Shown: positions 1 to 12,399 of the stretch, piece after piece
How positions within the stretch are numbered: position 1 is the stretch's first letter
How the letters are laid out: each line of letters begins with the position of its first letter
Virus record (IMG/VR): IMGVR_UViG_2751185956_000002
Span: 1-12,399 of that record
DNA: 12,399 nucleotides
Origin: a virus
Taxonomy: Duplodnaviria; Heunggongvirae; Uroviricota; Caudoviricetes
Direction: 5' to 3' (one strand)
Notes under the pieces: model-generated
The model's database searches: none
Told to the model about the DNA's origin: nothing
The model's input: only the letters and a program-made list of their open reading frames with translations
Translations under genes and position numbers: made by a program

Positions 1-879
1 AAACGTTTTATCCTGCGTCCAGGCGTTGTACCACGGTGTATCTGTAATTTTAAATAACTCTCCCTGGATAAAATCTTCAGAAGCATAAAAAAGAGGCTGG
101 CCCGGTATTCTCTCAAATAAAAAACGAGCATTTTTAAATCGACTGACATCCGGAAGAGTTGATACTTTAAAAGTAAGCCCTAATCCGTCAATTTTATAAC
201 CTGGAGATGAGGCTTCAAGGCACGCGCTTATTGCAGTGGAGTCGTCATTTATACCATCACCAACAGCTCCAAAATCTTTGGGGCTAATAGCATCACGCAT
301 TTTATCCTGGAACGTTCGGTACACAGCCCCAGAACCATACTGAATAAACCAACCAAAACCACCAACAACCCCGGCAATTGCAGCATCAACATAATTACGC
401 ATTGAGCGATTATTTACAGCGTCCTGCTCAAATGATGGATCTGCAAGGTTAGAAATTTTGTTTTGCTTTGCATCGTAATATTTTGCAAGCAGAGAGGGCT
501 TCATCAATGCACGTCTGAACCACCCAAAACATTGCTGGATCAGCATCGTCAGGTAGTCAAAGGCATCTTCATGCACTTCGGGGAAAAATTTTCCCTGATT
601 GCGAAGGTCTGTCTCCTGCACTACATCAAGCACACGATCTATCGTAATTCGCCATCCAGTAGCAAGCGGAGACGGAAGAACCACAGAACCGCCACTATAA
701 GTGCCCGCCCCAGTTACCGTATAACCGGTATCCAGGACCAATTCTGTTACGTTCCCGTTCAGGTCAGACACCTGAACAACCAGGTCTGATTTTCTGAAAA
801 TTCGAAAAGTATACGGAAACGATGTCGTAACGCCGTTACCGGTGTATTCGTTGTGGTCAACTTCGGTTGAGACCGTCAT
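1..879 (-). CDS. Tailspike / tail fibre protein, N-terminal 293 codons only (gene continues beyond window start)
   Basis: ATG at 879-877 preceded by GGAG with a 7-nt spacer; the frame is open to position 1. Translation begins MTVSTEVDHNEYTGNGVTTSFPYTFRIFRKSDLVVQV. Around residue 200 the stretch SPKDFGAVGDGINDDSTAIS resembles the start of the right-handed beta-helix (pectate-lyase-like) receptor-binding domain of tailspikes. The first ~150 aa look like a particle-attachment domain (recollection, not searched). Confidence 0.75.
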   Translation of the reverse strand, partial: MTVSTEVDHNEYTGNGVTTSFPYTFRIFRKSDLVVQVSDLNGNVTELVLDTGYTVTGAGTYSGGSVVLPSPLATGWRITIDRVLDVVQETDLRNQGKFFPEVHEDAFDYLTMLIQQCFGWFRRALMKPSLLAKYYDAKQNKISNLADPSFEQDAVNNRSMRNYVDAAIAGVVGGFGWFIQYGSGAVYRTFQDKMRDAISPKDFGAVGDGINDDSTAISACLEASSPGYKIDGLGLTFKVSTLPDVSRFKNARFLFERIPGQPLFYASEDFIQGELFKITDTPWYNAWTQDKTF

Positions 880-982
880 GTTAAATCTCCAGATAGTCGC
901 AGCACCCGTTGCGCCGCATATCTGGTTATTCTATTACCTGAAAAACCACATATGGATAAAAAGACTATAAATACCAATAGAT

Positions 983-999
983 ATTACCTTTCGGGTAAT
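983..999. promoter_or_regulatory. Operator-like palindrome A: ATTACC-TTTCG-GGTAAT
   Basis: Perfect 6-bp inverted arms with a 5-bp spacer. TTGCAA (1000-1005) lies immediately to the right, so on the minus strand the palindrome forms the 17-bp spacer of a possible leftward promoter pointing at the tailspike gene (-10 would be TATCTA, weak). Same core as sites B and C. Confidence 0.45.
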
Positions 1000-1074
1000 T
1001 TGCAAAACGTGCTGGATAGCAAACAAATTATTTGTTACTGTATAAACATACAGTTATTGCATGGAGAAGATAAG

Positions 1075-1332
1075 ATGCAGCAGTATCACTATCCACTGGA
1101 AGACGGATTTACCGAAAGGATTCACACGCCGGGAGGCGTCAGGTCACTGGTGGAGGGATCGCACTTGATGAAATTACTCCGGGATCTCGATAAGGATGGA
1201 TTTAATGTCGATGGCCCACTTGCCGAACTGACTGCACTGATTAACTACGTCACCAGCTCACAGATGTCTATGCAGGATCTGCAAACACATCTCGACTATT
1301 GTGCCGAACAATTACGAAAACAAACCAGATAA
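1075..1332 (+). CDS. Small protein (85 aa), stand-alone paralog of the antirepressor C-terminal domain
   Basis: ATG 1075 with GGAG 8 nt upstream. Preferred over the ORF-track start at 952, which has no RBS and would put palindrome A inside the coding sequence. Residues ~4-80 align with residues ~139-214 of the 218-aa antirepressor (shared H.P.GV..L.E.S.LM.LL..L..DG..V.G..AELT, then D.QTH..Y), roughly 40% identity by eye. Confidence 0.55.
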   Translation: MQQYHYPLEDGFTERIHTPGGVRSLVEGSHLMKLLRDLDKDGFNVDGPLAELTALINYVTSSQMSMQDLQTHLDYCAEQLRKQTR

Positions 1333-1335
1333 GGT

Positions 1336-1380
1336 TTGCAATTACCAAATGGAGTGCTTATATTTACCTTTGCGGTAAAT
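1336..1380 (+). promoter_or_regulatory. sigma70-like promoter (-35 TTGCAA 1336-1341, 17-bp spacer, -10 TATATT 1359-1364) with operator-like palindrome B (ATTTACC-TTTGC-GGTAAAT, 1362-1380) over the predicted start site
   Basis: Hexamers and spacing read directly. The palindrome begins inside the -10, the classic arrangement for repression. Palindrome B is itself nested inside a larger inverted repeat, GGAGTGC (1351-1357) / GCACTCC (1388-1394). Confidence 0.4.
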
Positions 1381-1491
1381 TTACATCGCACTCCTCTTGT
1401 GCCATAGTAATCGGGCACTGGCAAAATCCAGTGCCGGGATTGGTCTCCCGGATTACTAAGTGGCGCATACCACGCCAGACGTGGTTTTTTT
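1371..1491 (+). ncRNA. Candidate small structured RNA or attenuator-like leader (~120 nt) running from promoter B to an intrinsic terminator
   Basis: No credible ORF with an RBS in this stretch. It contains an 8-bp outer stem (TAGTAATC 1405-1412 / GATTACTA 1451-1458) enclosing a perfect 8-bp hairpin (GGCACTGG-CAAAAT-CCAGTGCC, 1414-1435) and a second hairpin (GGGA-TTGGTC-TCCC, 1436-1449, extendable to CCGGGA/TCCCGG), then the terminator at 1469-1491. Boundaries are inferred. Confidence 0.25.
1469..1491 (+). terminator. Rho-independent terminator-like hairpin
   Basis: Stem ACCACG / CGTGGT with loop CCAGA, immediately followed by a run of seven T (1485-1491). The stem is only 6 bp, so strength is modest. 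Confidence 0.45.
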
Positions 1492-1649
1492 ATGCGTATA
1501 GCACAGTCATGCCAGAATTATGGTGGGCTGAATGGGGGTCCGAAAGGACGCCGGTACCACTTAGGCCGGTAAGACCAACTCCGTTCAGTTCACCACCATC
1601 TGATTGGTCTCAGCGGTGGTGATGTAATTCGCTAAGTGGAGACGCCATC

Positions 1650-2306
1650 ATGAACGCTCAACTCATCCCCGTATTCAACGGCACTATATCTAACGAAACA
1701 GCCCTACTTTGTAATGCCCGCGATCTGCACGCTTTTTTAGGTGTTAAAAAGGTGTTTGCAGCATGGATTACAAATCGCATATCAGAATACGAATTCATTG
1801 AAAATCAAGACTATATTTTGCTTTCCAATTTGGGAAAGCAAACATCTGGTAGAGGCGGCCACAACCGCAAAGAGTACCACCTCACCCTTGATACAGCCAA
1901 AGAGCTGGCGATGGTCGAGCGTAACGAAAAAGGTCGTCAGGTACGACGCTACTTCATTGAATGCGAGAAACGTTTAAGACAACAAGAAACAAAAGTGGAG
2001 AAGGTCTTGTCAGGCTTCATGCCCGCCATTATGGAGGCGATCAAGCTGGAAGACAAAAAAGAATACAGTGCCCCGCTGAAGCCCGGCTACCGCAGCCTGA
2101 TTCATTCGCCGTCTGGTGTTCTCGGCCTGACGGAGAACTCACTGCTGATGAATCTGCTGAACCAGTTACAGGAAGACGGGCACGACGTATCGGGCGCGGC
2201 GGCGGAGCTGACCACCATGTTCTGCTACATCGTCGGTGTGAGCAAATGCCTGCGTGATATCCAGACGCACGCGGAGTACATCAACGACAAGGCAGGGTTC
2301 TTCTGA
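1650..2306 (+). CDS. Phage antirepressor, 218 aa (AntA-like N-terminal domain plus a C-terminal domain shared with the 85-aa ORF)
   Basis: ATG 1650 with GGAG 8 nt upstream; stop TGA 2304-2306. The N-terminal ~110 aa (LIPVFNG, then [76 protein letters not shown]) match my recollection of the AntA/AntB antirepressor family; not database-verified. Confidence 0.7.
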
Positions 2307-2314
2307 CGGGCGGT

Positions 2315-2341
2315 GGCACAGGGATGTGCCTTTAAATAATT
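2315..2341 (+). terminator. Weak terminator-like hairpin after the antirepressor gene
   Basis: Stem GGCACA / TGTGCC with loop GGGA (2315-2330), followed by the interrupted T/A-rich run TTTAAATAATT. Could equally be a processing or pause site. Confidence 0.25.
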
Positions 2342-2350
2342 CTGTACAGA

Positions 2351-2394
2351 TTGCAGACTGTGGGTGAATAGCGTACTATTACCTTAAAGGTAAA
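2351..2394 (+). promoter_or_regulatory. sigma70-like promoter (-35 TTGCAG 2351-2356, 17-bp spacer, -10 TACTAT 2374-2379) with operator-like palindrome C (ATTACC-TTAAA-GGTAAA, 2378-2394) over the start site
   Basis: Same architecture as promoter B: -35 TTGCAR, 17 bp, -10, with the palindrome starting inside the -10. The palindrome also abuts the Shine-Dalgarno sequence of the 55-aa ORF. Confidence 0.45.
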
Positions 2395-2405
2395 GGAGGC
2401 GCGAT

Positions 2406-2573
2406 ATGACAGCGTTGAAAAATCGTACTCAGCACAATGAACAAGCCAAGCAATGCTGGGATGTCATTGGAAAAGTTATGCTTGGCCGCGCAAGCAAAGA
2501 GCGCGACAAGGATATGGTTTACCAGACAGGAACATCTTTCAGCGACTTCAAGGCGGCATTTCGCTCCAAATAG
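2406..2573 (+). CDS. Small protein, 55 aa, function unknown (candidate regulator or partner of the downstream AT-rich gene)
   Basis: Not in the ORF track (too short). ATG 2406 is preceded by a near-consensus Shine-Dalgarno AAAGGAGG (2392-2399) with a 6-nt spacer; stop TAG 2571-2573. Translation MTALKNRTQHNEQAKQCWDVIGKVMLGRASKERDKDMVYQTGTSFSDFKAAFRSK. Confidence 0.45.
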   Translation: MTALKNRTQHNEQAKQCWDVIGKVMLGRASKERDKDMVYQTGTSFSDFKAAFRSK

Positions 2574-2593
2574 AAGCACATCAGGAGTTTTCC

Positions 2594-3034
2594 TTGAAGT
2601 TTAACATTAGAATATCTAATAGTTTTCTACATGGGGAAAGCAACACCCCTTTCGCTGTAGACGGACCTTTCCTTACTGATGATGAAATAAAAATCATACA
2701 AAGTTTTTTAGAGGATGTTGCCAATGGAAGGGCGCTTGTTGGAAAAAACAAGCCCTCGTGGGTTGATGATAACCATGATAAAATTCCCGGCTCAGACAAT
2801 TATGAGCAAGAGAATTATTGGCATTATCATTGTGGGCCAACATGGTATCCAAACACATTTAAGAATTATACCATTAACTTAAATTTCAACCCTGGCGGAA
2901 GGCATTCTAATGAATGCATTCATTATGCAAAAAATGATAATGAAATTGTCATTGTTGGATTTTCAAGAGAACACATACCTTTCCTTTCATCAGATGGAAA
3001 CAACAATCCGCTTTTTAATGATGAAGAAGAATAG
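2594..3034 (+). CDS. AT-rich moron protein, 146 aa if started at TTG 2594 (193 aa if ATG 2453 is used); His/Cys-rich C-terminal motif, function unknown
   Basis: The frame is open from 2453 to TAG 3032-3034, but the only in-frame ATG (2453) has no RBS and lies inside the 55-aa ORF in another frame. TTG 2594 is preceded by AGGAG (2583-2587) with a 6-nt spacer. Composition drops sharply to AT-rich from ~2590 to 3030. Contains WHYHCGPTWYPNTFKNYTINLNFNPGGRHSNECIHY. Confidence 0.5.
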   Translation: MKFNIRISNSFLHGESNTPFAVDGPFLTDDEIKIIQSFLEDVANGRALVGKNKPSWVDDNHDKIPGSDNYEQENYWHYHCGPTWYPNTFKNYTINLNFNPGGRHSNECIHYAKNDNEIVIVGFSREHIPFLSSDGNNNPLFNDEEE

Positions 3035-3056
3035 CCCGCGCTGCGGGCTTTTTTGT
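3033..3056 (+). terminator. Strong rho-independent terminator
   Basis: Perfect 7-bp GC-rich stem AGCCCGC / GCGGGCT with loop GCT, followed by TTTTTT, starting at the stop codon of the AT-rich gene. Confidence 0.75.
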
Positions 3057-3085
3057 GGACGAAACAAAAGTCAGTGCTACACTCA

Positions 3086-3113
3086 TTGACGCCACATTGA
3101 GGTGGCTTATAGA
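3086..3113 (+). promoter_or_regulatory. sigma70-like promoter candidate (-35 TTGACG 3086-3091, 16-bp spacer, -10 TATAGA 3108-3113)
   Basis: Hexamers read directly. It would give a very short leader before ATG 3127, so assignment to the downstream small ORF is tentative. Confidence 0.3.
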
Positions 3114-3126
3114 TGGAAATTTCACA

Positions 3127-3288
3127 ATGAAAAAAGCATTTGCTGCACTGTTCGTTTTGTTGTCTCTGGTAGCTTCAACTCAGGCCTTTGCCGGTCGTTG
3201 TCAGCACGACAGCGATACTGCCGCTGACGGCTCCCGCTGCGGTGGGCGTTCTGCGGATTCCCGCCCGGGTGGCGGTGGCATTCGTTAA
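3127..3288 (+). CDS. Small exported peptide precursor, 53 aa (signal peptide plus 31-aa Gly/Arg/Asp-rich mature peptide with two Cys)
   Basis: ATG 3127; stop TAA 3286-3288. The N-terminus MKKAFAALFVLLSLVASTQAFA is a textbook Sec signal peptide (basic n-region, hydrophobic core, AFA cleavage motif). Predicted mature peptide GRCQHDSDTAADGSRCGGRSADSRPGGGGIR. RBS is weak; the ORF-track GTG start at 3055 abuts the upstream terminator and is unlikely. Confidence 0.4.
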   Translation: MKKAFAALFVLLSLVASTQAFAGRCQHDSDTAADGSRCGGRSADSRPGGGGIR

Positions 3289-3311
3289 AAACAAGGCCGC
3301 GAAAGCGGCCT
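3283..3311 (-). terminator. Rho-independent terminator for the minus-strand operon (after the lipoprotein gene)
   Basis: Stem AGGCCGC / GCGGCCT with loop GAAA (3294-3311). On the minus strand it is followed by TGTTTTTAA (reverse complement of 3285-3293), 9 nt after the lipoprotein stop codon. Confidence 0.5.
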
Positions 3312-3319
3312 GTGACATG

Positions 3320-3700
3320 TCACGCAACGCAATTATTACCGCGCCATGTAACATTTTTAATAATCTTATCAGCACCAAACTCAACGTAAACAGAGCAACT
3401 GAAATGGAGTGTATAACCGCCATCAGTTGTTGCGTATGTGTTTGAATATATAGTATTACCAATTAGATTAGACGTAGTATTATACGTTGTGGTTTGTGGT
3501 ACGTTATAACTACCAGAGCTTGAGTAAACATACACTCTGTTTCCATCTGGAGATGTAAGCTCTCCCTGAGGATACCCCCACTGCTGAACCATTGCGTCTA
3601 TACTCTGCCCGCGCCACGTAAGCATATTTCTTTCAAACTGTGCAGCTGACTGGCATCCAACGAGAAGCATAAATCCAAAAATCAAAAATACTTTTCTCAT
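3320..3700 (-). CDS. Predicted outer-membrane lipoprotein, 126 aa (moron; candidate superinfection-exclusion or receptor-masking factor)
   Basis: ATG 3700-3698 with AGGGG 5 nt upstream; the ORF-track start (GTG 3736) is less likely. N-terminus MRKVFLIFGFMLLVGCQSAAQ gives a lipoprotein signal with lipobox LVGC and Gln at +2 (not Asp, so outer-membrane sorting is expected). AT-rich, unlike the neighbouring virion genes. Stop TGA 3322-3320. Confidence 0.7.
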   Translation of the reverse strand: MRKVFLIFGFMLLVGCQSAAQFERNMLTWRGQSIDAMVQQWGYPQGELTSPDGNRVYVYSSSGSYNVPQTTTYNTTSNLIGNTIYSNTYATTDGGYTLHFSCSVYVEFGADKIIKNVTWRGNNCVA

Positions 3701-3785
3701 AATTACCCCTATCATGGAAAAACAGCACCAATCCACAAATTAACTAGTTATTTTATTATTCTTCCGAACAATACAATTCCGAATA

Positions 3786-3908
3786 CTACAAAGCCGAACC
3801 ATGCCGCTGCACGCAACAGAGATTCCAATTGAAACCCATTTTTATCAAAATGTATGAATAGCATAAAAACGCTGCACATATTAGTACAATAAAAGTTATT
3901 TGAACCAT
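3786..3908 (-). CDS. Small hydrophobic membrane peptide, 40 aa (not in ORF track)
   Basis: ATG 3908-3906 preceded by AAGGAG (3919-3914) with a 5-nt spacer, directly after the stop of the 824-aa gene. Translation MVQITFIVLICAAFLCYSYILIKMGFNWNLCCVQRHGSAL: an N-terminal ~21-residue hydrophobic helix and a short Cys-rich tail. Stop TAG 3788-3786. Confidence 0.4.
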   Translation of the reverse strand: MVQITFIVLICAAFLCYSYILIKMGFNWNLCCVQRHGSAL

Positions 3909-3919
3909 CATATCTCCTT

Positions 3920-6394
3920 TTATTGCGGAGTGACATCCTGTGGTCGCCACCAGTATGTCTGGTTAAACTCTTTCTTCGAACGTTGCTCCATTTTACGCAA
4001 ATAGCCTGGTGAAAAATACTCCTGCATCTGGTTAAAGATCATGTGATCGAGAGCCGCCTTCAAGTACCAGAGATTCGCACCAGGCATCAAACCTTTCCCC
4101 AGCTTCACCAGATCACCACCAGTCTGCTCACTCTTCCCTTCCACAGCATTTAACGGTATGCCCTGAGCAATCTTCACTACGTCATCAACCAGACCAGCTA
4201 CCGGGCCAAGCATCGACGCCAGCGCGCCGCTTCCGTACCTAGTGTGATCTGACAATAAAAAGTCACCGTAAAGGCCAAGACCACCACCTTTCAGTAGAGC
4301 ACCAAGCCAGAATTTTGCGGCATCTTCTCCTGTCATCTCTCGAGGATTACGACCAGACGCAAGGTCGTTAAGTTGCTGCGACAAAGCGCCAAGAATGGTC
4401 GTACTGGCAATAAACGTCGCAATATATGCCGCACGCCCACCAGCAGACGGCATACCCATAGCGCGTGACCAGTGACGCATAACAACCGAGATAGGGAACG
4501 ATTTAAACAGGAAAACACTTCTCGTTAATTCACCTTTCCATGTTCCACGCTGAATACCAGAACCGGTTATCAGTTGCTCACGTGCTCCCGGTGTAATAAC
4601 AGCCATATCAACTTCTTCAGTTACGGCACCGAGCAGTTTACGCATTGCCTCAAATTTCACGCGTTCAGGCTCACCAAGATGTTTAACTGCTGAATCAGGG
4701 ATACGCATAATGCTTTCCGGTGTCAGCATCGTATTATTACCGTTCCCCCAGTCCTCCTGTTTCGCCAGCTTCCATACGCTCCAGTCTGTGTCAGTAATCC
4801 CTTTGCTTTTCAGGATACGAAAATCAGAGTCATCGAGGCTACGAAGGTCTGGTGTCCGTGACACTACTTCTCCCAGGCTTCCCATCATGGTTACGCCATA
4901 GGCGCGCTTGTGCGCATCTGACCATGCTGTAAGCCCACTGGCACGCATTACCGCCGTTGCCGCCCAACGAGACACTGACGGCCCCATATTATCCATCGCC
5001 CAGCGGTTAACGCTGCCAAGTAGAGATTCCATCGCCAGACCAGCGCGGCGCGCCCGCGCAAGTTCTGTACGGTTCGTTGGGTCCATAGCTTCAAGCTGGT
5101 TGCGGAATAACTGGTTCATTGGAAGGTTGGTAACCTTCGCAGACAGATACATGGTTCCAAGATCAGAGAACGATGACAGCAACGCGGATCCGAGTCTGCT
5201 GGCAACCAGCCAGTTGCGGATATTGTCAGACCATCGCGCGATGTGCGGATTCGCTACAGGCTGTGTCTTTCCGGAAATAAAGTTGTACAGATTCTCTGTG
5301 TTGTTCGCCAGCCGCTCGACTTTACCGGTTTTACTCGGGTTAGCTGTTGCCGTTTCTGCCTTCACCTGATCAAGAAGAGAGCGGAAAACATGATCGGGGT
5401 TTGGGCCATATGTTTCCACCAGTGCAATATCTTTACTGATACCTTCCAGGTGACAGACCATGATTTCCCATAGAGAGCGATCGCCATAAAGTTGCTGATA
5501 TTGCAGATAGGAATCTGCATCTTTGAAATGTATCTGTCGTGATGCATTACCACGGTTAGCACGTGCGCCGGAAATTCGCATTCCGGTATCAGTAAGCTTA
5601 TTCAGCCCACCAGTAGCGATCGTGTTATAAGCCTCTCCAAGAAATGAAGACAACTCGGCATCGTTCATCAGTTGTCCATCGGCTCGGATATAATATTTGC
5701 GATCCAGCTTACCTATAACATCGCTAACCCACTTATCCTTTGATACTGCCCCAACCTTTTCCATAGAATGATGTTGAGGGATCCCCCAGTTTTCGAGATA
5801 GCCAATGTCCCCACCAGCATCATTAAACCGGCGGCGCAGCAGCTCTGTAACTTCTCTCCACGCCTTAGCACCGTTTCTTGCTTTAGCATTGCCAGTATTT
5901 TGCCCCCGCATTTCATATACCAGGTCACGTACGCCCGCTTCATCTTCAAACAGACCAAAAAAGCGAGGATCAACTGCTTCGAATGCCTCCTGCAATTGAC
6001 TCAATGCATAATCACGGGTGGCTTTTGTTCTGGATTCAACAGAGAGGAAATTAGATTTACCGTCTGCATTAAAAGCTATAGTACGGTTAAGAGCGCCAAG
6101 TTTCCCATCAGCCCCTTGATAGCTATTGATAAATTTATCCAATCTCTGACGCGCGGCTATAGTGAGAGCCACACGACGTTTATTTAATGCCGCTTCTCGC
6201 TGTAATTCTTCAGATGCCAATTGTGCTGCTCGATATAGCCGCTCTGATTCGGAAAGTTGTCGCCACGACATAGTGTCATCACGAGCAATGGAGCGCATAT
6301 TTCGATAAATGCGGTCTTCAATGTTCTGTATTTCTCGCGCCGTTAACATGCGCTGCGCCGCCTGCTGAACCGCTTGTATACATTCCTGTCTCAT
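3920..6394 (-). CDS. Large virion internal-core / DNA-ejection-type protein, 824 aa
   Basis: Uninterrupted ORF; ATG 6394-6392 with a GAGG-containing RBS; stop TAA 3922-3920. Third of three consecutive large proteins (837, 600, 824 aa) between small virion genes and the tailspike, the arrangement typical of podophage ejection/core proteins. Function is inferred from size, order and context only. Confidence 0.75.
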   Translation of the reverse strand: MRQECIQAVQQAAQRMLTAREIQNIEDRIYRNMRSIARDDTMSWRQLSESERLYRAAQLASEELQREAALNKRRVALTIAARQRLDKFINSYQGADGKLGALNRTIAFNADGKSNFLSVESRTKATRDYALSQLQEAFEAVDPRFFGLFEDEAGVRDLVYEMRGQNTGNAKARNGAKAWREVTELLRRRFNDAGGDIGYLENWGIPQHHSMEKVGAVSKDKWVSDVIGKLDRKYYIRADGQLMNDAELSSFLGEAYNTIATGGLNKLTDTGMRISGARANRGNASRQIHFKDADSYLQYQQLYGDRSLWEIMVCHLEGISKDIALVETYGPNPDHVFRSLLDQVKAETATANPSKTGKVERLANNTENLYNFISGKTQPVANPHIARWSDNIRNWLVASRLGSALLSSFSDLGTMYLSAKVTNLPMNQLFRNQLEAMDPTNRTELARARRAGLAMESLLGSVNRWAMDNMGPSVSRWAATAVMRASGLTAWSDAHKRAYGVTMMGSLGEVVSRTPDLRSLDDSDFRILKSKGITDTDWSVWKLAKQEDWGNGNNTMLTPESIMRIPDSAVKHLGEPERVKFEAMRKLLGAVTEEVDMAVITPGAREQLITGSGIQRGTWKGELTRSVFLFKSFPISVVMRHWSRAMGMPSAGGRAAYIATFIASTTILGALSQQLNDLASGRNPREMTGEDAAKFWLGALLKGGGLGLYGDFLLSDHTRYGSGALASMLGPVAGLVDDVVKIAQGIPLNAVEGKSEQTGGDLVKLGKGLMPGANLWYLKAALDHMIFNQMQEYFSPGYLRKMEQRSKKEFNQTYWWRPQDVTPQ

Positions 6395-6399
6395 TTAAT

Positions 6400-8202
6400 T
6401 TAACCTCTCAAGAAACACGCCACAGCGACATCAAACAGGCTGGAATCCTGTATTGCCTGCTCACTTTCCCTGTTCGCTTCATCCAGTGCTTCACGCGCAC
6501 TGCGCGATTGTGGATTACCATCATCATCCAGCACGGTGATTATCATGTCAGGTGATTCAAGCAGCGAGTCTTCAGCTATGCGCAAATCAATATCTCCTGC
6601 CTGATCTGACATCATTTTTTGTTCTGCCTGTTGCAATATTTTATCAGGCTCAAAAGGAGCTACTTCGTCTGGCGTCCTGACCTCTGCTGTTTTATAGAAT
6701 GAAACAGCCTGAGCATTAAGTTCACTTTCTGCCTGCTGTCTCCGAGCCAGTTCTGCTCGAGCTTCAAAAAACTGACCGCCAGGCTCATGCGGTGCCAACG
6801 CGTTACGAGAAAATTCCAGGCGTTCTTGTGCCTGCCGGATTCGTTGGTCAATATCGCGAAGTCTGGCCTGTTTATCTGATCGAGCACGAGATAAAGCCTT
6901 ACCGCTACCGGCTGGATCTTCTGCAAGAATTTGTGCGCGCTGTTCAGTGAGATTTTCAATAATTCGTTGGCTATTAGCGATTTCAGACTGGTAAACCTGT
7001 CTATCGCCACGCGGCAAAAGCTGCGCGGCCTGTTCTTCAAGCAACCGATTTTCTATAGCGCGCGCCGTTACTCCATCATCTACAGATGACAGAGCCTCAT
7101 TAACTGCCTGAGACAGCAGACTCTTGCGTCCAGGAATTTCACTGAAAGATGCAGACTCAACAATGCTGGCAACGTCTACAGGTCTCCCCTGGCTAACATC
7201 AGACATGGCTTTTCGCAGAGCCTGAATGTGCGAATTACGCGAAAGCACGTTGATCGGCACGCCGGGAGCAATATCAATTTCAGCATGATGAGCGGCATTC
7301 GCCGCCAGTGCAGCATCGATATCAACTGGTGAAAAATTTGGTGCGCTTGTAGACTCGCCGCGAGAGTTAATAAATCTGCCGACACCACCAAACGCCACCC
7401 CAAGAACAGCATCAATAGCAATTGCCTGTCGATCCAACACATCATACTGGTTAGCCATTTCGCTATAGCCACCATCACGAAGCGTTTTTGCAGTAAGCCC
7501 ACGCTGTGCCATACCGAACGCAATATTTGTACCTGCGGCATAGGCAATATCTGGCGTTGCACGTACTGCTGTTGCTGCGGCGCGTCGCACTGAACTTTCA
7601 CCCGTCCGCGCAAGCTGAGCCGCCACACCTTCCGCCAGCGCACCACCAGCACGTAACCCGAGGCTCATAGGGATCAGTGTTCCGGCACCAGCAGTAATAC
7701 CCTGCACTAATCCCGCTTCCTGCGCCGTCCTGAAATCAACACCCTGTGCTGTAAGCCGTTCAAACTCAGAAAAACCCTGTAGAGAAGTTACCGCCGCAGC
7801 ACCTCCGACCGGACCACCGAGCGTTGTACCGACAACAGCCTGCCCGCCCATATCGAACAACCCATAAAGGACCTGCCCGGCGGTTCCGGTTGTCGCGGCA
7901 TCAGGCGTCAGCCGCTTAACCTGCTGCTCTGCTAGTTTTCTCTGCTCAGCAATGTATGAAACTGAAGTGTCATTGATCGAGGTGTTTTCGTTAACAAACT
8001 GAGCAATCGGGGATACGATTTTATCCATCCCTGCCCATAGCAACTGATCTGGCTTTGCCACCAGCCCGGAGTACAAACCAGACAATGCCGCTCCTACAGC
8101 ATTGTCGAAAAAACCAACATCGCTGTTAAAGCCAGCTGGATTTGATGCTGCTTCGTCAAGCTGCTGATTCTGGTTTACTGGATTAAGGCCAAAGTAACTC
8201 AT
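6400..8202 (-). CDS. Virion internal / DNA-ejection-type protein, 600 aa (Gly/Ala-rich N-terminal half, coiled-coil-like charged C-terminal half)
   Basis: ATG 8202-8200 overlaps the stop of the upstream gene (ATGA). The N-terminal half is rich in Gly/Ala hydrophobic segments (e.g. GTTLGGPVGGAAAVTSLQG, GITAGAGTLIPMSLGLRAGGALAEGVAAQLA), suggestive of membrane insertion. The C-terminal half is Arg/Glu/Gln/Ala-rich with heptad-like character. Confidence 0.75.
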   Translation of the reverse strand: MSYFGLNPVNQNQQLDEAASNPAGFNSDVGFFDNAVGAALSGLYSGLVAKPDQLLWAGMDKIVSPIAQFVNENTSINDTSVSYIAEQRKLAEQQVKRLTPDAATTGTAGQVLYGLFDMGGQAVVGTTLGGPVGGAAAVTSLQGFSEFERLTAQGVDFRTAQEAGLVQGITAGAGTLIPMSLGLRAGGALAEGVAAQLARTGESSVRRAAATAVRATPDIAYAAGTNIAFGMAQRGLTAKTLRDGGYSEMANQYDVLDRQAIAIDAVLGVAFGGVGRFINSRGESTSAPNFSPVDIDAALAANAAHHAEIDIAPGVPINVLSRNSHIQALRKAMSDVSQGRPVDVASIVESASFSEIPGRKSLLSQAVNEALSSVDDGVTARAIENRLLEEQAAQLLPRGDRQVYQSEIANSQRIIENLTEQRAQILAEDPAGSGKALSRARSDKQARLRDIDQRIRQAQERLEFSRNALAPHEPGGQFFEARAELARRQQAESELNAQAVSFYKTAEVRTPDEVAPFEPDKILQQAEQKMMSDQAGDIDLRIAEDSLLESPDMIITVLDDDGNPQSRSAREALDEANRESEQAIQDSSLFDVAVACFLRG

Positions 8203-10712
8203 TGCGGAATATCTCCGGAGAATCTCTGACGCTTCTGTGTCAGATTAAGAACAACGGGAGAACCATCATCTTTCAGCAGATAACCAGTACCAAGTTTCAC
8301 CAGGTACTGACTATCGCCGTAACTTTGCAAACCATACTGACCAGGCGGTGTTTTTATCCCGGAGCCGACAACTTGTTCATTCCAAGCCTGATTAACCTGC
8401 TTATCGAATTGCTCTGCAGACATTCCCCACGGCAAAAGGACATTCCCCATTCCGTTATAGTCATGCACGCCACCTGTAGCTACGTTAACAGCCTGTTTCC
8501 AGACATCATTGTCAATTTCGCCTGATACCACGCCTTTTTTCGCCATCACACCAGCGTAATAATCCTTTGCGATCTCGTATGCCATTGATGCGCCCTGAGC
8601 GTCACCAGCAAATGCATCCTTCACCATGTCAGAAAACTCAAGGCGAAGATCAGCATCTTTAGGCATCGGAATACCTTTCGCATCATCAGTACCTTTACGA
8701 GCCGCCGCGCCAGCAAGAATTGTCTGCGCAGCGGTTTCAGGAGACACGGAAACATCCGGATTAAACCAGTTTTTTTCTGCCAAAATACCACCAGGCTTAT
8801 CCATCAGTATCCCGGCAACGGCAGCAGATGGAGCGTTGGCACTGATCTGCTGTAGTGCTGACATATACACCTGCCCACCACCAGTGCTCTGCCTGATGGT
8901 ATCGAGATATGCTGCCTGTTGGGAAACTGGAGCATCACGAAAGAAAACACCGATCTGATTGGCCTCGTCTTTGGAAAAGAACGTCAGTAGAGTGCCATAT
9001 GACTTAGCAAGGTCACTGACCTGAGCGGCACGCAAGGCAACGCTCTGTCCAAAGTTATCCTTATTGCTCATGTCGATAGGCTTTGCCTGTCCGGAGGCAA
9101 GAGAGAACTGCACAGGATCCGACTGCCGCTGCTTTATCACCTGATTTGCAGCCGAAACAACGTTGTCATAAAGAGTTGCGCGTGCCGCATACCCCTCCCC
9201 TGTATCACCAGTATCCGGGCGTAATTGCTCAACATATGCTGTAATGCTGCTTGTCGGCATGTTGCGGAAAGAGCCTATATACTGTCCGGCGATCTGCGTA
9301 TTCTTAAACTCGGTATATCGCAGGTTTCCTTCTCTGACTCCATAAGCTGCAATAAAATCATCCTCACCAGGTGGGTTAGGAAATTCAATGCCACGCATAT
9401 ACGCAGCCGTCGCATCGCGAACCCGGCTGTCGAGCATCGTTTTATATTCAGCCTGCTGTTGTCTGGCTAGTGCATCAGTCTGTCGCAACACGCTGGCCTG
9501 ATCTGATTCACTTAAAGCATCGAACCAGGCTACACCGGTATAACGTTTATTTTTTGTCGGTAGCTGAGAAAGCCCCAGCGCAGCACTAACACCTGCAGTT
9601 AACTGCTGATCACTGTATGGCTGGCTACCGTTTTCATGATGGATAATGGCTGCACAAAGCGCCTTCAGGGTATCAGGATTTGATGCATCGAGAGGCTCAT
9701 CAGCAGAAACGCCAAGTTGTTCGCACACTGCTTTGATATACGACATAGTGTCATTTTTATCAGTAGGCGGTGCCCAGCGATTAATTATCTCGCTGACGGT
9801 ATCAATACCCTGCCGCTGATACGACATCAGGTTCCGCCCTAATGCACGAATACCGTGTTCAGGGGTTTCGAATTTGGCAAAGCGACCATCATCACCAGTC
9901 TGCCCAACCCACGGATTAGTTTTGCTGTATTCAAGATTGCCGGGGTTATTGTTGCGTATACCGCGGGTACGATCGGAAGAGCCACTATCTGCTACAGCAC
10001 GGCGAGAACCAGCAGCAGTATCGCTTAACTCTCCGTTTTGCTGTCTTACCTGAAGATAGTTTGCTCCAATAGCATTTTGAGCAGTTGCTTTTGCTGTTGC
10101 TTCTTTAAACTCGATTTTCTTGGCCTGGATTTGCTCGTCACTCCAGCCATGTGCAATGCCGTAATCCTCAATTTGCTGGAAAGTTTGCTTATTAGCCAAT
10201 ACGTATGCGGCGTTGTCGCCATACAATGCTGCGGCATTTTTACCATTGTTCAGCAGCGTAGCCTGAAACTGGCCTTCTTCGTAGGCATTTATTTGCCCTA
10301 TCTCGTGCCGCCCGGCCTGCGTAGTGAACTGAATGCGCTGCTGCTGCGCCTGCTGCATGAAAGCATTACGAGCCTGTTCATCCGGCAGCGACATAGCCAG
10401 TTGTTCGACCTGAGCATCAAACTGCTGCGTATACTCCTGACCTTTTCCAATAGCATTTTTCCCTTTCAGGTTAAGCAAACCTGTTTCAGGGTTATTCAGC
10501 AGATCGCTGCTTATCTGGCTTAAGCTAAGAGAAGCATCCTGAGCCATAGCAACATTCGCACGCTGTTTTGCCTGCGCAATAATACCTGCATATTGCTCTG
10601 CAACATCGCCAAGTACATCACCGACATTTGGTGTCTGAAACGATGAGAATCCCTGCGTCGAAATCCCTCTGCTCTGAACCTGACGGCCCGATGTTGTTGG
10701 TACAACTGGCAT
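8199..10712 (-). CDS. Large virion internal / DNA-ejection-type protein, 837 aa, with an embedded conserved-looking globular domain (residues ~251-380)
   Basis: ATG 10712-10710 with GGGGA RBS 12 nt after the upstream stop; stop TGA 8201-8199. Contains GIRNNNPGNLEYSKTNPWVGQTGDDGRFAKFETPEHGIRALGRNLMSYQRQGIDTVSEIINRWAPP, which I associate with phage structural proteins carrying a cell-wall-acting domain, but cannot verify. Confidence 0.75.
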   Translation of the reverse strand: MPVVPTTSGRQVQSRGISTQGFSSFQTPNVGDVLGDVAEQYAGIIAQAKQRANVAMAQDASLSLSQISSDLLNNPETGLLNLKGKNAIGKGQEYTQQFDAQVEQLAMSLPDEQARNAFMQQAQQQRIQFTTQAGRHEIGQINAYEEGQFQATLLNNGKNAAALYGDNAAYVLANKQTFQQIEDYGIAHGWSDEQIQAKKIEFKEATAKATAQNAIGANYLQVRQQNGELSDTAAGSRRAVADSGSSDRTRGIRNNNPGNLEYSKTNPWVGQTGDDGRFAKFETPEHGIRALGRNLMSYQRQGIDTVSEIINRWAPPTDKNDTMSYIKAVCEQLGVSADEPLDASNPDTLKALCAAIIHHENGSQPYSDQQLTAGVSAALGLSQLPTKNKRYTGVAWFDALSESDQASVLRQTDALARQQQAEYKTMLDSRVRDATAAYMRGIEFPNPPGEDDFIAAYGVREGNLRYTEFKNTQIAGQYIGSFRNMPTSSITAYVEQLRPDTGDTGEGYAARATLYDNVVSAANQVIKQRQSDPVQFSLASGQAKPIDMSNKDNFGQSVALRAAQVSDLAKSYGTLLTFFSKDEANQIGVFFRDAPVSQQAAYLDTIRQSTGGGQVYMSALQQISANAPSAAVAGILMDKPGGILAEKNWFNPDVSVSPETAAQTILAGAAARKGTDDAKGIPMPKDADLRLEFSDMVKDAFAGDAQGASMAYEIAKDYYAGVMAKKGVVSGEIDNDVWKQAVNVATGGVHDYNGMGNVLLPWGMSAEQFDKQVNQAWNEQVVGSGIKTPPGQYGLQSYGDSQYLVKLGTGYLLKDDGSPVVLNLTQKRQRFSGDIPQ

Positions 10713-10724
10713 CTTATTATCCCC

Positions 10725-11264
10725 TTATCGACCGGTTGGAGTGCCAACAGCAGCAGAAATCGGCGCAGCCTTCTGAGAGAACGGGCTCCACGTTCCGCCG
10801 CCCATCTGGTATGCACCGTATGCTTTTAGTGGTGCCGTTAACAAAGTGCTGGTCATCGATGATTTAGCAGCCGACTGAGCAGCAGCCCCCTGTGCCTGAG
10901 CATTCATTCCCTGAACCTGATACCCATATGCCTCACGCTGAGCATTATTCACTGTCGTTAACGCATCAAGAGTGCCGAACTGAGCATTATCCGCAAAAAC
11001 GTCAAGAGCTGTTCCGCTACTTAATTCCGCACCGGTAGCCCCCATAGTGGCCGCCGCAGTGCCTGAGCGTTGACGCATTTCACGACGACGCTGATCCGCT
11101 TCAATATTCCCACGATTGATTGAATCCTGTGCCTGAGCTTCAGCAATTTCAGCATTCCGATCAGCTATGGCTGACTGGTATTTTGCCTGCTTGCTCTGGC
11201 TGTACATTGACGCGGCTGTGGATGCCACTGTGACGGCAACCAAAGCGATGGCTGGGTTACACAT
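10725..11264 (-). CDS. Small membrane-anchored virion protein, 179 aa
   Basis: ATG 11264-11262 overlaps the upstream stop (TAATG); RBS GGAG 8 nt upstream. N-terminal hydrophobic segment MCNPAIALVAVTVASTAASMY, then an Ala/Gln-rich charged region and a Gly-rich C-terminus. Resembles the small membrane-associated internal proteins that precede large core proteins in podophages (analogy only). Confidence 0.65.
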   Translation of the reverse strand: MCNPAIALVAVTVASTAASMYSQSKQAKYQSAIADRNAEIAEAQAQDSINRGNIEADQRRREMRQRSGTAAATMGATGAELSSGTALDVFADNAQFGTLDALTTVNNAQREAYGYQVQGMNAQAQGAAAQSAAKSSMTSTLLTAPLKAYGAYQMGGGTWSPFSQKAAPISAAVGTPTGR

Positions 11265-11728
11265 TATTTTCTCTCCATGTGAAATCTGTGGAAATTAAGA
11301 CCAAGAGCACCATAAGGCGCGGCTTCTTCAAGCCTGAATCCAAGCCAGTGCAGCCATGCTTTGGCAACATGGTTTCGCTCGTCGACGTAGTTTTCCAGGC
11401 GCGGATAAACTGCCAGCATCTGCTGCAATACAGGGCGGCAGTGGCGAAGAAATGTCTTCTGATATTTTTCAATACGGCTGGTTCCTACCAGCCAGGGAGT
11501 ACCATTGCCACCGATCATTGACGCCGGAGATACGCCAAACATGGTTACCAGTTCTCCGTTCGCAAATCCTGACCAGGCCATAGTCGCAGTGCGAAGACCA
11601 ACACGCAGCGCATCTTCGGTAGTCATCAGTGATACCGCATACAGTTCGTCAATATCAGCCTGACGAACATCCGGCAAAATCATCTGAAGATGCTCTTCGG
11701 TTGCGGGAATAATTTGAACATCGATCAT
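11264..11728 (-). CDS. Virion morphogenesis-associated protein, 154 aa, function unknown
   Basis: ATG 11728-11726 overlaps the stop of the upstream gene (ATGA), indicating translational coupling within the virion operon. The C-terminal stretch NHVAKAWLHWLGFRLEE loosely resembles the conserved C-terminal motif of GNAT-type acetyltransferases (weak, unverified). Confidence 0.65.
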   Translation of the reverse strand: MIDVQIIPATEEHLQMILPDVRQADIDELYAVSLMTTEDALRVGLRTATMAWSGFANGELVTMFGVSPASMIGGNGTPWLVGTSRIEKYQKTFLRHCRPVLQQMLAVYPRLENYVDERNHVAKAWLHWLGFRLEEAAPYGALGLNFHRFHMERK

Positions 11729-12264
11729 CAGAACCCACCAACAGTAAGGCGAGGAATAACGGCAAGAACAGACAGCGGCAACGGATCAAGCTGACGGATT
11801 TTTACACGTCCGTTTTTGCCCCAGTTACTGTCCAGTTTCACTTCTACTTTTCCGGTAGCATCATCAACAGGATCATCGTAGAACTCGAATTCACGCTGTG
11901 GATATTCGTACCATTTACCGCCGGGCGTAGTCGCCCAGATGCCGCGACTGGCATTCACAACCAGAGTAACGGACGGGATCACCTGTTTTTTGTCCAGCAG
12001 CGTTTCCTGTCCGTTAATGTTGATATCCAGTGTTTCGAATTCAGCAGTTATTGGCAGGCCGATGTGCACTACAGCCCCCGGTGATTCCAGCGTGACGGCA
12101 CCTCCGGAAACCACTTTCTGTGGTTCCACGTTCGCATCAGAGAGAATGTTTACGGTCTGGCCTTCAAGATGAGACAGGCCTCCAAATGTCCGGCGCGCCA
12201 TCTGCCAGTTCGTGGTGGCCACATTCCTGAGGGATGGCGGGACGTTCCTGTTAGCACGAACCAC
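11728..12264 (-). CDS. Virion morphogenesis-associated protein, ~178 aa, function unknown; start uncertain
   Basis: Frame open from the stop at 12321-12319 down to TGA 11730-11728. The most upstream start is GTG 12264-12262 (no clear RBS); the alternative ATG 12201-12199 also lacks an RBS. The protein sequence is globular-looking and directly coupled to the downstream gene. Confidence 0.6.
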   Translation of the reverse strand: MVRANRNVPPSLRNVATTNWQMARRTFGGLSHLEGQTVNILSDANVEPQKVVSGGAVTLESPGAVVHIGLPITAEFETLDININGQETLLDKKQVIPSVTLVVNASRGIWATTPGGKWYEYPQREFEFYDDPVDDATGKVEVKLDSNWGKNGRVKIRQLDPLPLSVLAVIPRLTVGGF

Positions 12265-12365
12265 TACAGCGGTATTGCTGGTTACAGAAATAATGTCGCA
12301 ACGTAGATGATATGACCTTTATATACTCACTATAGCATTGGTGGGATATTCCAGAGGAGGTCATC

Positions 12366-12399
12366 ATGCATTCGGAAAATATTGCGGCTTACGTCGGGC
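12366..12399 (+). CDS. Possible 5-prime end of a plus-strand gene running off the window (MHSENIAAYVG...)
   Basis: ATG 12366 preceded by a strong Shine-Dalgarno AGAGGAGG (12353-12360) with a 5-nt spacer. Only 11 codons are visible. A minus-strand reading frame entering from beyond the window edge could instead end at 12364-12362 (TGA), so this is ambiguous. Confidence 0.3.
   Translation, partial: MHSENIAAYVG

Follow-up and report, generated by a model that had tools for sequence, protein, structure and literature searches.

A conserved two-cysteine peptide, predicted to be exported, is encoded by a prophage moron cassette of an epsilon15-like Escherichia coli phage

We analyzed a 12,399-nucleotide stretch of viral DNA (positions 1 to 12,399 of IMG/VR record IMGVR_UViG_2751185956_000002, hereafter the window), which comes from an Escherichia coli phage or prophage of the epsilon15-like (Uetakevirus) type. 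The subject of this work is a small open reading frame (ORF) on its plus strand, from an ATG at 3127 to a TAA ending at 3288, whose 53-amino acid (aa) product is MKKAFAALFVLLSLVASTQAFAGRCQHDSDTAADGSRCGGRSADSRPGGGGIR. An original prediction, made from the letters of the window, had placed a 53-aa exported peptide at 3086-3288. The ORF is present and the end at 3288 holds, but position 3086 is the start of the −35 box then proposed, and the ORF itself begins at 3127. We propose that this gene is carried by a moron cassette, and that its product may be a Sec-exported and cleaved periplasmic peptide that would act alone as a lysogenic-conversion factor. We put the probability of this overall explanation at about 0.55. 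As an element the gene is of a familiar type, being a prophage moron that encodes a small exported protein; what is unusual is its cargo, which has not attracted study.

The coding nature of the ORF was examined by comparing 81 phage and prophage copies, namely 80 IMG/VR copies and the window copy. Over the 162 nt there were 27 variant alleles, of which 26 were synonymous, and codon position 3 held 26 of the 27 variants. The sole non-synonymous variant, F21S, lies within the signal peptide. A lack of conservation in related prophages, which the original prediction had named as evidence that would speak against a gene, was looked for and was not seen: the peptide is essentially frozen across the 81 copies. 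Relative to three Klebsiella phage versions (∼72% DNA identity), 21 codon differences were synonymous and 7-9 non-synonymous; in the part encoding the mature peptide the proportion was 13 synonymous to 3 non-synonymous, and third codon positions accounted for most of the differences between the E. coli and Klebsiella versions. Protein alignments show a hydrophobic leader that drifts and a segment from C25 to G49 that is almost invariant. There are 57 close homologues and at least 1027 profile matches, and the reading frame is kept from Gamma- to Alphaproteobacteria.

A chance ORF in GC-rich, low-complexity DNA, or a region acting only as RNA, would be in keeping with the composition of the segment and with its weak Shine-Dalgarno sequence and weak promoter. 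Against this stand the 26:1 ratio of synonymous to non-synonymous changes, their location at codon position 3, the retention of the frame across two classes of Proteobacteria, and the in-frame stop that Klebsiella phages have three codons upstream, which fixes the same start region; furthermore, no Rfam match was found in the cassette. The comparative data already refute the chance reading, to which we assign a negligible probability, and the earlier preference for a real gene is borne out by the polymorphism ratio and by the homologues. We conclude from these comparisons that the ORF is, beyond reasonable doubt, a real gene under strong purifying selection, and that it very probably encodes a translated and exported peptide.

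Other starts for the reading frame were considered and discarded. A longer ORF of 77 aa, from a GTG at 3055, conflicts with this in-frame stop of the Klebsiella phages and with the conservation of MKK as the start; an upstream extension to GTG 3055, as some gene callers make it, is probably an error. A leader mini-ORF with its ATG at 3114 (MEISQ), whose TGA overlaps the main ATG, lies behind a strong GAGGTGG sequence (3100-3106). However, a 1-nt indel destroys this mini-ORF in the Klebsiella phages, and GGTGG is the 3′ arm of a conserved stem-loop. At the other end of the gene, the rare database variants P0010 and P0012, with 1-3 member sequences each, are frameshifted around the run of Gly codons GGT GGC GGT GGC (window ∼3262-3280). 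They read ...SRQVAVAFVKNK... and ...SARAAVAFVKNK..., with the RPGG tail replaced and the stop read through, and are probably sequencing or slippage variants.

The product consists of a leader, MKKAFAALFVLLSLVASTQAFA (codons 1-22; 3127-3192, plus strand), followed by a mature part, GRCQHDSDTAADGSRCGGRSADSRPGGGGIR (3193-3288 with the stop codon, plus strand), which carries exactly two cysteines, C25 and C38, and which is near-invariant in alignment A1 and recovered by the profile matches. The features expected of a substrate of Sec and signal peptidase I are present: MKK, which gives an n-region of charge +2, then the uncharged hydrophobic core AFAALFVLLSLVA, and then an A-F-A↓G site. The sequence of the leader varies among homologues, with its properties and the AxA↓G site kept. 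Of 154 small family members, 136 have a net positive n-region; their h-region is short, with ∼15 uncharged residues in most cases, and the leader is typically 22 aa long. At the cleavage site, A/S/V/G/T occupies position −3 in 92%, A/S/G position −1 in 89%, and Gly position +1 in 94% of these members. The Sec signal peptide of the original prediction is therefore upheld by conservation of AxA↓G over the small members. The lipobox pattern [LVI][ASTVI][GAS]C was not found in the peptide, where F-A-G-R-C puts R (N, P or S in relatives) between the small residue and the Cys. Because AxA↓G is conserved while the rest of the leader drifts, and no lipobox is present, cleavage by signal peptidase I is predicted.

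If cut after AFA, the mature peptide would have 31 aa, a mass of 3060 Da, a pI of 8.1, a grand average of hydropathy (GRAVY) of −1.19 and no aromatic residues. It contains 8 Gly, 5 Arg and 4 Asp, as expected of the Gly/Arg/Asp-rich 31-aa peptide first described, and the two cysteines noted at the time proved to be invariant and to have a fixed Cys-x12-Cys spacing. The net charge is +0.8 or −1.2, GRAVY ranges from −1.2 to −1.4, and there is no amphipathic or hydrophobic face. An AlphaFold2 model built with a 50-sequence alignment was of moderate confidence, had a predicted local distance difference test score of 76 overall and of 80-84 for residues 1-20, and contained a β-bridge across the A-x-D-G-S turn; a Foldseek comparison of this model with the PDB gave only neighbours with E>4. 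Export, cleavage and disulfide formation would follow from sequence rules, and we have moderate confidence in cleavage and in the disulfide. In the database name "transmembrane anchored protein", a signal peptide that is cleaved off has probably been taken for an anchor.

Databases already list the gene, under descriptive names only. The homology search recommended with the original prediction yielded, in addition to the profile matches mentioned above, a full-length match to PHROG 14503 (moron category, "membrane associated protein"; E = 2.3e-40, 137 bits, residues 1-53 on profile positions 1-53 of 53). The proteins grouped as PHROG 14503 / phrog_3117 and named "transmembrane anchored protein" by NCBI are the same protein as the window peptide, and nothing differs in sequence. 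Identity is 100% to gp43 of phage TL-2011b (YP_007001994.1) and to Orf11 of phiv142-3 (QGF19617.1), and WP_000708858.1 bears the same NCBI name. Literature searches found no characterised member of the PHROG 14503 family and no publication on it, and the names are unreferenced. Searches of Pfam, NCBIfam and PADLOC with the peptide gave nothing significant; the NCBIfam matches to HxsA3 (E = 0.07) and MarB (E = 0.16) were dismissed as noise from the signal-peptide region, and PADLOC had no match at E≤0.01 for the peptide or for its five neighbours.

The gene lies in a cassette (3033-3311) with a hairpin at each edge. On the left, the terminator scan found an intrinsic terminator hairpin, AGCCCGCGCTGCGGGCT, at 3033-3049 (plus strand), followed by TTTTTT, which ends the upstream moron gene. 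On the right it found, on the minus strand (3311-3294) and with a T-run, the hairpin AGGCCGCGAAAGCGGCCT at 3294-3311, which is flanked by an A-tract and, on its opposite side, by a T-tract. The placement of the gene between two terminators was thus predicted correctly. The right hairpin, where the cassette and the minus-strand late genes converge, is a bidirectional terminator shared by both, and it is 100% conserved in 6 phages with differing minus-strand neighbours. Phage phiV10 has no peptide gene but retains the last ∼23 nt of the gene and also the hairpin, annotated as a terminator by the authors of that genome. The upstream hairpin occurs in either orientation in different phages; TL-2011b carries its exact reverse complement (AGCCCGCAGCGCGGGCT versus AGCCCGCGCTGCGGGCT).

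The surroundings of the cassette are variable. Similarity of the window to TL-2011b, EC.W1-9 and the Klebsiella phages starts at ∼3011-3022, at the upstream terminator, and extends to just past the downstream hairpin. The 400-nt flanks around the unchanged peptide in the 81 copies fall into 10 left and 9 right clusters, in at least 45 combinations; the left neighbours across phages are a YafO-family toxin, DUF2335 or phrog_5954 genes, and the right neighbours are Ant, lipoprotein or other ORFs. The cassette, of roughly 290 bp, stays intact while its flanks shuffle. The GC content of the segment encoding the mature peptide is 60-66%, against 30-45% in the flanks, in agreement with the GC-rich, low-complexity segment described previously. 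At ≥80% coverage, the cassette was found in 422 of 5,426 complete E. coli genomes (about 8%); peptide relatives are encoded in 314 IMG/VR contigs, and 12 phage records carry the gene. With hairpins on both sides, flanks that shuffle, a distinct GC content, a presence independent of the flanks, and the hairpin left in phiV10 without the gene, these comparisons identify the cassette as a prophage moron that moves as a unit. The prophage accessory island proposed at the outset can hence be specified as a moron island between hairpin terminators.

The mature part belongs to a wider family. Its profile matched 240 clusters at E≤1e-3 among 1.84 billion representatives, and the profile of the whole small protein accounted for the larger set of at least 1027 proteins. 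The common core, of ∼28 residues, is [Y/A]-x-G-N-C-x4-[D/Q/N]-x-A-x-[D/N]-G-S-R-C-G-x-R-[S/A]-A-x-x-R-P-G-G. The Cys-x12-Cys spacing was found in 181 of 205 motif instances, and the polypeptide usually ends one residue past GG. Three architectures were observed: a signal peptide plus the motif only, as in the window peptide; longer exported proteins that carry the motif, sometimes in two copies, at their extreme C-terminus (100 of 155 instances) after Gly/Ser-rich linkers; and a CxCPY subtype. Most of the classified motif proteins have an N-terminal hydrophobic, signal-like segment, and in the P0154 and P0174 types the signal peptide and motif are followed by a transmembrane (TM) segment. The partner domains in fusions are SH3_3, PG_binding_1, YHYH, SNase and T2SS-T3SS_pil_N (a pilus-formation N-terminal domain). 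The named hosts, all of them diderms, are Enterobacterales, Pasteurellaceae, many Rhizobiales, Azospirillum, Paraburkholderia and many Cyanobacteria; for the long forms, a cluster look-up of taxonomy gave metagenome proteins only. The motif was covered by no model of Pfam or NCBIfam, a sequence-profile search of the PDB gave 0 matches at E≤10, and literature searches with the family name or the motif string returned nothing relevant. By its profile matches, the window peptide is a free-standing copy of this widespread motif.

Some relatives were located in their genomic context. A Microvirga relative lies in a prophage beside holin, lysozyme and SLT genes, and a Pectobacterium relative between a MuF-toxin gene and tail genes, both in unrelated prophages and on the strand opposite to their neighbours; a 104-aa relative with a lipoprotein signal, a TM segment and the motif is encoded between the Q antiterminator and holin genes of a lambdoid prophage. 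In Methyloligella sp. GL2 (locus L072, 4395-5081) one protein fuses an SNase domain to the motif, and an SNase gene adjoins a motif-bearing lipoprotein gene in Mesorhizobium (5 loci) and Aureimonas; loci L026 (5246-5944) and L091 (5128-6030) are of this kind. This link by fusion or neighbourhood is restricted to Rhizobiales. SNase is a nuclease family that depends on Ca2+.

Our working explanation for the gene is as follows. The cassette would comprise a terminator, a weak promoter, a structured leader, the 53-codon gene and a second terminator, set between the tailspike and ejection-protein genes. Once exported by Sec, the pre-peptide would be cleaved by signal peptidase I at the AFA↓G site, behind Ala22, with release of a 3.06-kDa hydrophilic peptide into the periplasm, where C25 and C38 would most likely close a DsbA-made disulfide around a β-hairpin loop (D-x-A-x-D-G-S-R). 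Elsewhere, the same module is tethered through Gly/Ser linkers to the C-termini of exported proteins of many Proteobacteria and Cyanobacteria, and since it is otherwise the tethered terminal module of many unrelated exported proteins, a generic binding module is the simplest model. We infer that its ligand may be something generic to diderm envelopes, a divalent cation or else a component of the cell wall, and that the phage copy may act alone by occupying or sequestering that ligand, which would change the envelope of the lysogen. The benefit would then be of the lysogenic-conversion or superinfection-exclusion type. In ∼84 loci no gene family recurred beside the peptide gene, save for lineage-specific synteny and for SNase in some Rhizobiales, and therefore the peptide presumably works with general host machinery (Sec, signal peptidase and Dsb). 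The specific ligand and the phenotype are speculative, and any single choice among them is doubtful.

Several observations weigh against this explanation. The fusion partners are heterogeneous, and no single ligand is indicated by them. About 24 relatives (P0060, P0061, P0085, P0094 and similar; L098, 7001-7315) begin with a signal or lipoprotein peptide and a short domain, after which come another hydrophobic segment, a Gly-rich linker and the motif; under the usual topology rules the second hydrophobic segment would put the motif in the cytoplasm, which is hard to reconcile with an obligatory disulfide. Some small members are found in ordinary chromosomal contexts, for instance between bacA and ffh in a 1.65-Mb alphaproteobacterium, and therefore the function would not be phage-specific. 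The candidate promoter of the cassette (3056-3083) matches the consensus at only 8 of 12 positions and was not listed by the promoter scan, and the Shine-Dalgarno sequence is weak. In the only expression study of phiv142-3, orf11, which is the peptide gene, is absent from the 14 serum-induced genes and was not mutated (PMC7724020). To these points must be added the poor fit of the motif to Excalibur, the domain it most resembles among those compared here.

Excalibur bears on a specific version of the proposed ligand, namely that the peptide is a miniature Excalibur-like loop, folded around the ion and closed by the disulfide, that would buffer or deliver Ca2+ or another metal in the periplasm. 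Like the motif, Excalibur (PF05901; CbpL nuclear magnetic resonance structure 5J8T) is small and extracytoplasmic, with two conserved cysteines and an aromatic-x-N-C start; both also have a D-x-x-x-D-G-x-x-C loop, SNase fusions and low-complexity linkers. hhalign pairs D-T-A-A-D-G-S-R-C of the peptide with D-R-D-x-D-G-V-A-C of Excalibur, links to SNase exist on both sides (Methyloligella, Mesorhizobium and Aureimonas for the motif; P0311 for Excalibur), and the mature peptide has no hydrophobic core. Excalibur and SNase occur together in YokF, and CbpL's Excalibur domain is unfolded without Ca2+ (PMC5137146). However, the hhalign probability was 1.8% over 9 columns, and PF05901 gave no match to the peptide at E≤1 nor to 68 motif instances at E≤10. 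In the CbpL loop, DxDxDGxxCE, the Ca ligands are Asp1, Asp3, Asp5 and Glu10 (PMC5137146), whereas the peptide loop, D-x-A-x-D-G-S-R-C-G, has an almost invariant Ala at position 3 and a nearly invariant Gly at position 10, so that two of the four ligands are missing; in the CxCPY subtype both remaining Asp are replaced by Asn. The cysteines are 12 apart in the motif and ∼30 apart in Excalibur, the motif has an extra conserved tail (G-x-R-S/A-A-x-x-R-P-G-G), and the named Excalibur matches are mostly Gram-positive, in contrast to the diderm hosts of the motif. Membership in Excalibur was therefore rejected. We consider this calcium-loop version unlikely, and cation binding by the peptide is a hypothesis only.

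Less probable again is that the 53-aa product stays uncleaved, as a bitopic inner-membrane protein (N-in, C-out) whose Cys-containing tail would modulate a membrane sensor or transporter. The names given by NCBI and PHROG point in this direction, this topology would likewise place the tail in the periplasm, and the P0154 and P0174 types have the motif beside a true membrane span. The analogy would be MgrB, which we take to act on PhoQ; the MgrB-type small membrane regulators presumably resemble the peptide in size (47-53 aa), in their N-terminal hydrophobic segment and in their two periplasmic cysteines. MgrB, however, has no sequence similarity to the peptide, and the peptide family differs in its conserved AxA↓G site and in the use of the motif as a C-terminal domain of soluble exported proteins. 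Moreover, AxA at −3/−1 and Gly at +1 are kept in ∼90% of the 154 small members despite the drifting hydrophobic segment, the h-region of ∼15 uncharged residues is signal-peptide-like and short for a stable span, and literature searches found no paper that uses the database names for this family.

The original prediction had also offered a bacteriocin-like or signalling function besides that of an envelope-targeted factor. A secreted toxin of the bacteriocin type, or a peptide for communication between phages or cells, would suit a small, predicted secreted product with a possible disulfide, its wide spread in E. coli prophages, and a location that in some phages adjoins genes of the immunity region (TL-2011b, ant/arc; the window, isrK-C4-antA). 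But the leader is of the Sec type and not a double-glycine leader, the neighbours shuffle freely, and in the ∼84 loci no conserved gene for immunity, an ATP-binding cassette exporter, a receptor or a modification enzyme adjoins the peptide gene. The locus thus lacks the organisation of a class II microcin or bacteriocin, with its Sec-type leader, its variable flanks and no conserved neighbour. Nor does it resemble loci for ribosomally synthesised and post-translationally modified peptides (RiPPs) or arbitrium-type systems, since no adjacent modification enzyme or receptor family recurs in these loci. The near-neutral charge, low GRAVY and lack of an amphipathic or hydrophobic face are unlike those of membrane-active bacteriocins. 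A 3-kDa peptide would probably stay behind the outer membrane without a dedicated exporter, the same motif is a tethered domain in hundreds of larger proteins, and there is no PADLOC match. The absence of a partner gene, the Sec leader and the hydrophilic, near-neutral peptide therefore disfavour the bacteriocin, RiPP and arbitrium readings, and we regard a toxin or communication peptide as highly improbable. The envelope-targeted factor of the original prediction is the option that fits best.

Prophage morons for small exported envelope proteins are known, as exemplified by Bor of lambda, Cor of phi80 and N15, Llp of T5 and Sp of T4. The peptide cassette shares with the Bor/Cor/Llp/Sp type a location in or beside late or tail genes, a distinct composition and a product predicted to be targeted to the envelope, and it would likewise be an autonomous promoter-gene-terminator unit read independently of those genes. 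The peptide itself differs from these proteins: it has no sequence similarity to them, has no lipobox and so is not a lipoprotein, and is much smaller (31 aa when mature). A small exported envelope moron protein of the Ltp type has also been described (PMC5137146).

The expression signals of the cassette were analyzed in the region between the upstream terminator and the ATG. The promoter first proposed, with TTGACG (3086-3091) and TATAGA (3108-3113), could not be maintained. It was not listed by the promoter scan, which missed it because its −10 box has no final T, and its −35 box is not conserved in homologues. The sequence TATAGA falls inside a conserved CTAYACA box. A footprint of 10 Enterobacterales homologues revealed, instead, a −10-like TAC[AG][AC]T box kept at a fixed distance upstream of a stem-loop. 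From this conservation we derived a candidate promoter at 3056-3083 (plus strand), with TGGACG (3056-3061), a 16-nt spacer and the extended −10 TGc-TACACT (hexamer 3078-3083). In the window, TG precedes the −10-like box at 3075-3076 and the stem-loop starts 7 nt after the box.

The stem-loop, GCCAC-ATTGAG-GTGGC, lies at 3091-3106 (arms 3091-3095 and 3102-3106; plus strand) and was found by covariation and in the minimum free energy fold of the window. In the alignment, 94% of cells were paired, with compensatory changes in 3 of 5 pairs, while slid controls were 20-62% paired. It is probably located at or near the 5′ end of the mRNA. It is followed at 3106-3117 (plus strand; alignment A8) by the conserved leader box CTTATAGA, which is CTAYACA in homologues, and by GGA (3115-3117), a weak element of the Shine-Dalgarno type at a distance of 9 nt from the ATG; across homologues this element is a weak GGA or AGG. 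An Rfam scan of the cassette assigned the stem-loop and the CTAYACA box to no known family, and the box may be a site for a regulator or may belong to the structured leader. These features would be consistent with a weak constitutive promoter and a transcript that starts with a stem-loop, which may stabilise the mRNA.

The region around the cassette (window 2900-3324) is 99.5% identical to Escherichia phages phiv142-3 and HEMP4. The large minus-strand ORFs of the window encode virion and ejection proteins (phrog_684). A plus-strand accessory island lies between these late genes and the tailspike gene, which is to the left of the island in phiv142-3. The island contains an isrK / C4 antisense-RNA / AntA antirepressor module and the phrog_5954 gene, with the peptide ORF as its last member, read opposite to the late genes. 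The Hfq-binding small RNA isrK (Rfam, 67.7 bits) and the C4 antisense RNA (61.2 bits) map to 1415-1491 and 1516-1600 (plus strand), and the AntA/AntB antirepressor gene (1650-2306, plus strand; Pfam E = 4e-26) is directly downstream of them. We take this set to be an immunity module of the P1/P7 immI (c4-ant) type, which in this case sits in a Uetakevirus accessory island. An ORF of 126 aa at 952-1332 (plus strand) matches phrog_450, with weak similarity to an anti-repressor phrog. Its C-terminal ∼60 residues resemble the C-terminus of the AntA protein, as if the C-terminal domain of the antirepressor had been duplicated in part.

Directly upstream of the peptide cassette is a 193-aa ORF at 2453-3034 (plus strand) that matches phrog_5954 (E = 2e-73). 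The phiv142-3 prophage gene orf10, reportedly induced 2^4.12-fold in chicken serum and required for resistance to serum (PMC7724020), corresponds to a 52-aa ORF (2724-2882, plus strand) that lies inside the 193-aa ORF in a different frame. The primers of the published orf10 deletion map to ∼2716-2884, within the larger ORF, and therefore the deletion disrupts the phrog_5954 gene, which is probably the real gene behind orf10. Beyond the cassette, a 125-aa protein with a lipobox, MRKVFLIFGFMLLVGC..., is encoded at 3320-3697 (minus strand, ATG at 3697; phrog_3716), and a 62-aa ORF at 3748-3936 (minus strand) looks hydrophobic and occupies the position where phiV10 has a small integral-membrane protein. 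Both sit between the ejection-protein genes and the cassette, and because this position is variable among related phages they are candidates for superinfection-exclusion functions.

The frozen amino-acid sequence of the peptide amid recombining surroundings implies that the lysogen or the phage pays to keep the cassette. The two-cysteine motif is common to more than 1000 exported proteins of Proteobacteria and Cyanobacteria and is modelled by no domain library, and a 3-kDa peptide accessible to chemical synthesis would be a convenient tool to find its ligand. If the peptide alters superinfection or envelope properties such as serum resistance, it would be relevant to lysogens among avian pathogenic and extraintestinal pathogenic E. 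coli, such as DE142 (phiv142-3). In DE142, the gene adjoining the peptide gene has already been linked to serum survival (PMC7724020). We tentatively raise a broader conjecture, which we hold to be possible but not probable: the motif may be an unrecognised, widespread extracytoplasmic mini-domain of diderms with a specific envelope ligand, which unrelated temperate phages would have captured repeatedly as a stand-alone secreted effector. If so, the free peptide would represent a novel type of competitor or decoy that phages encode and that works in the periplasm; it could, for example, block a step that depends on the cell wall or on cations and that superinfecting phages or envelope proteins of the host require.

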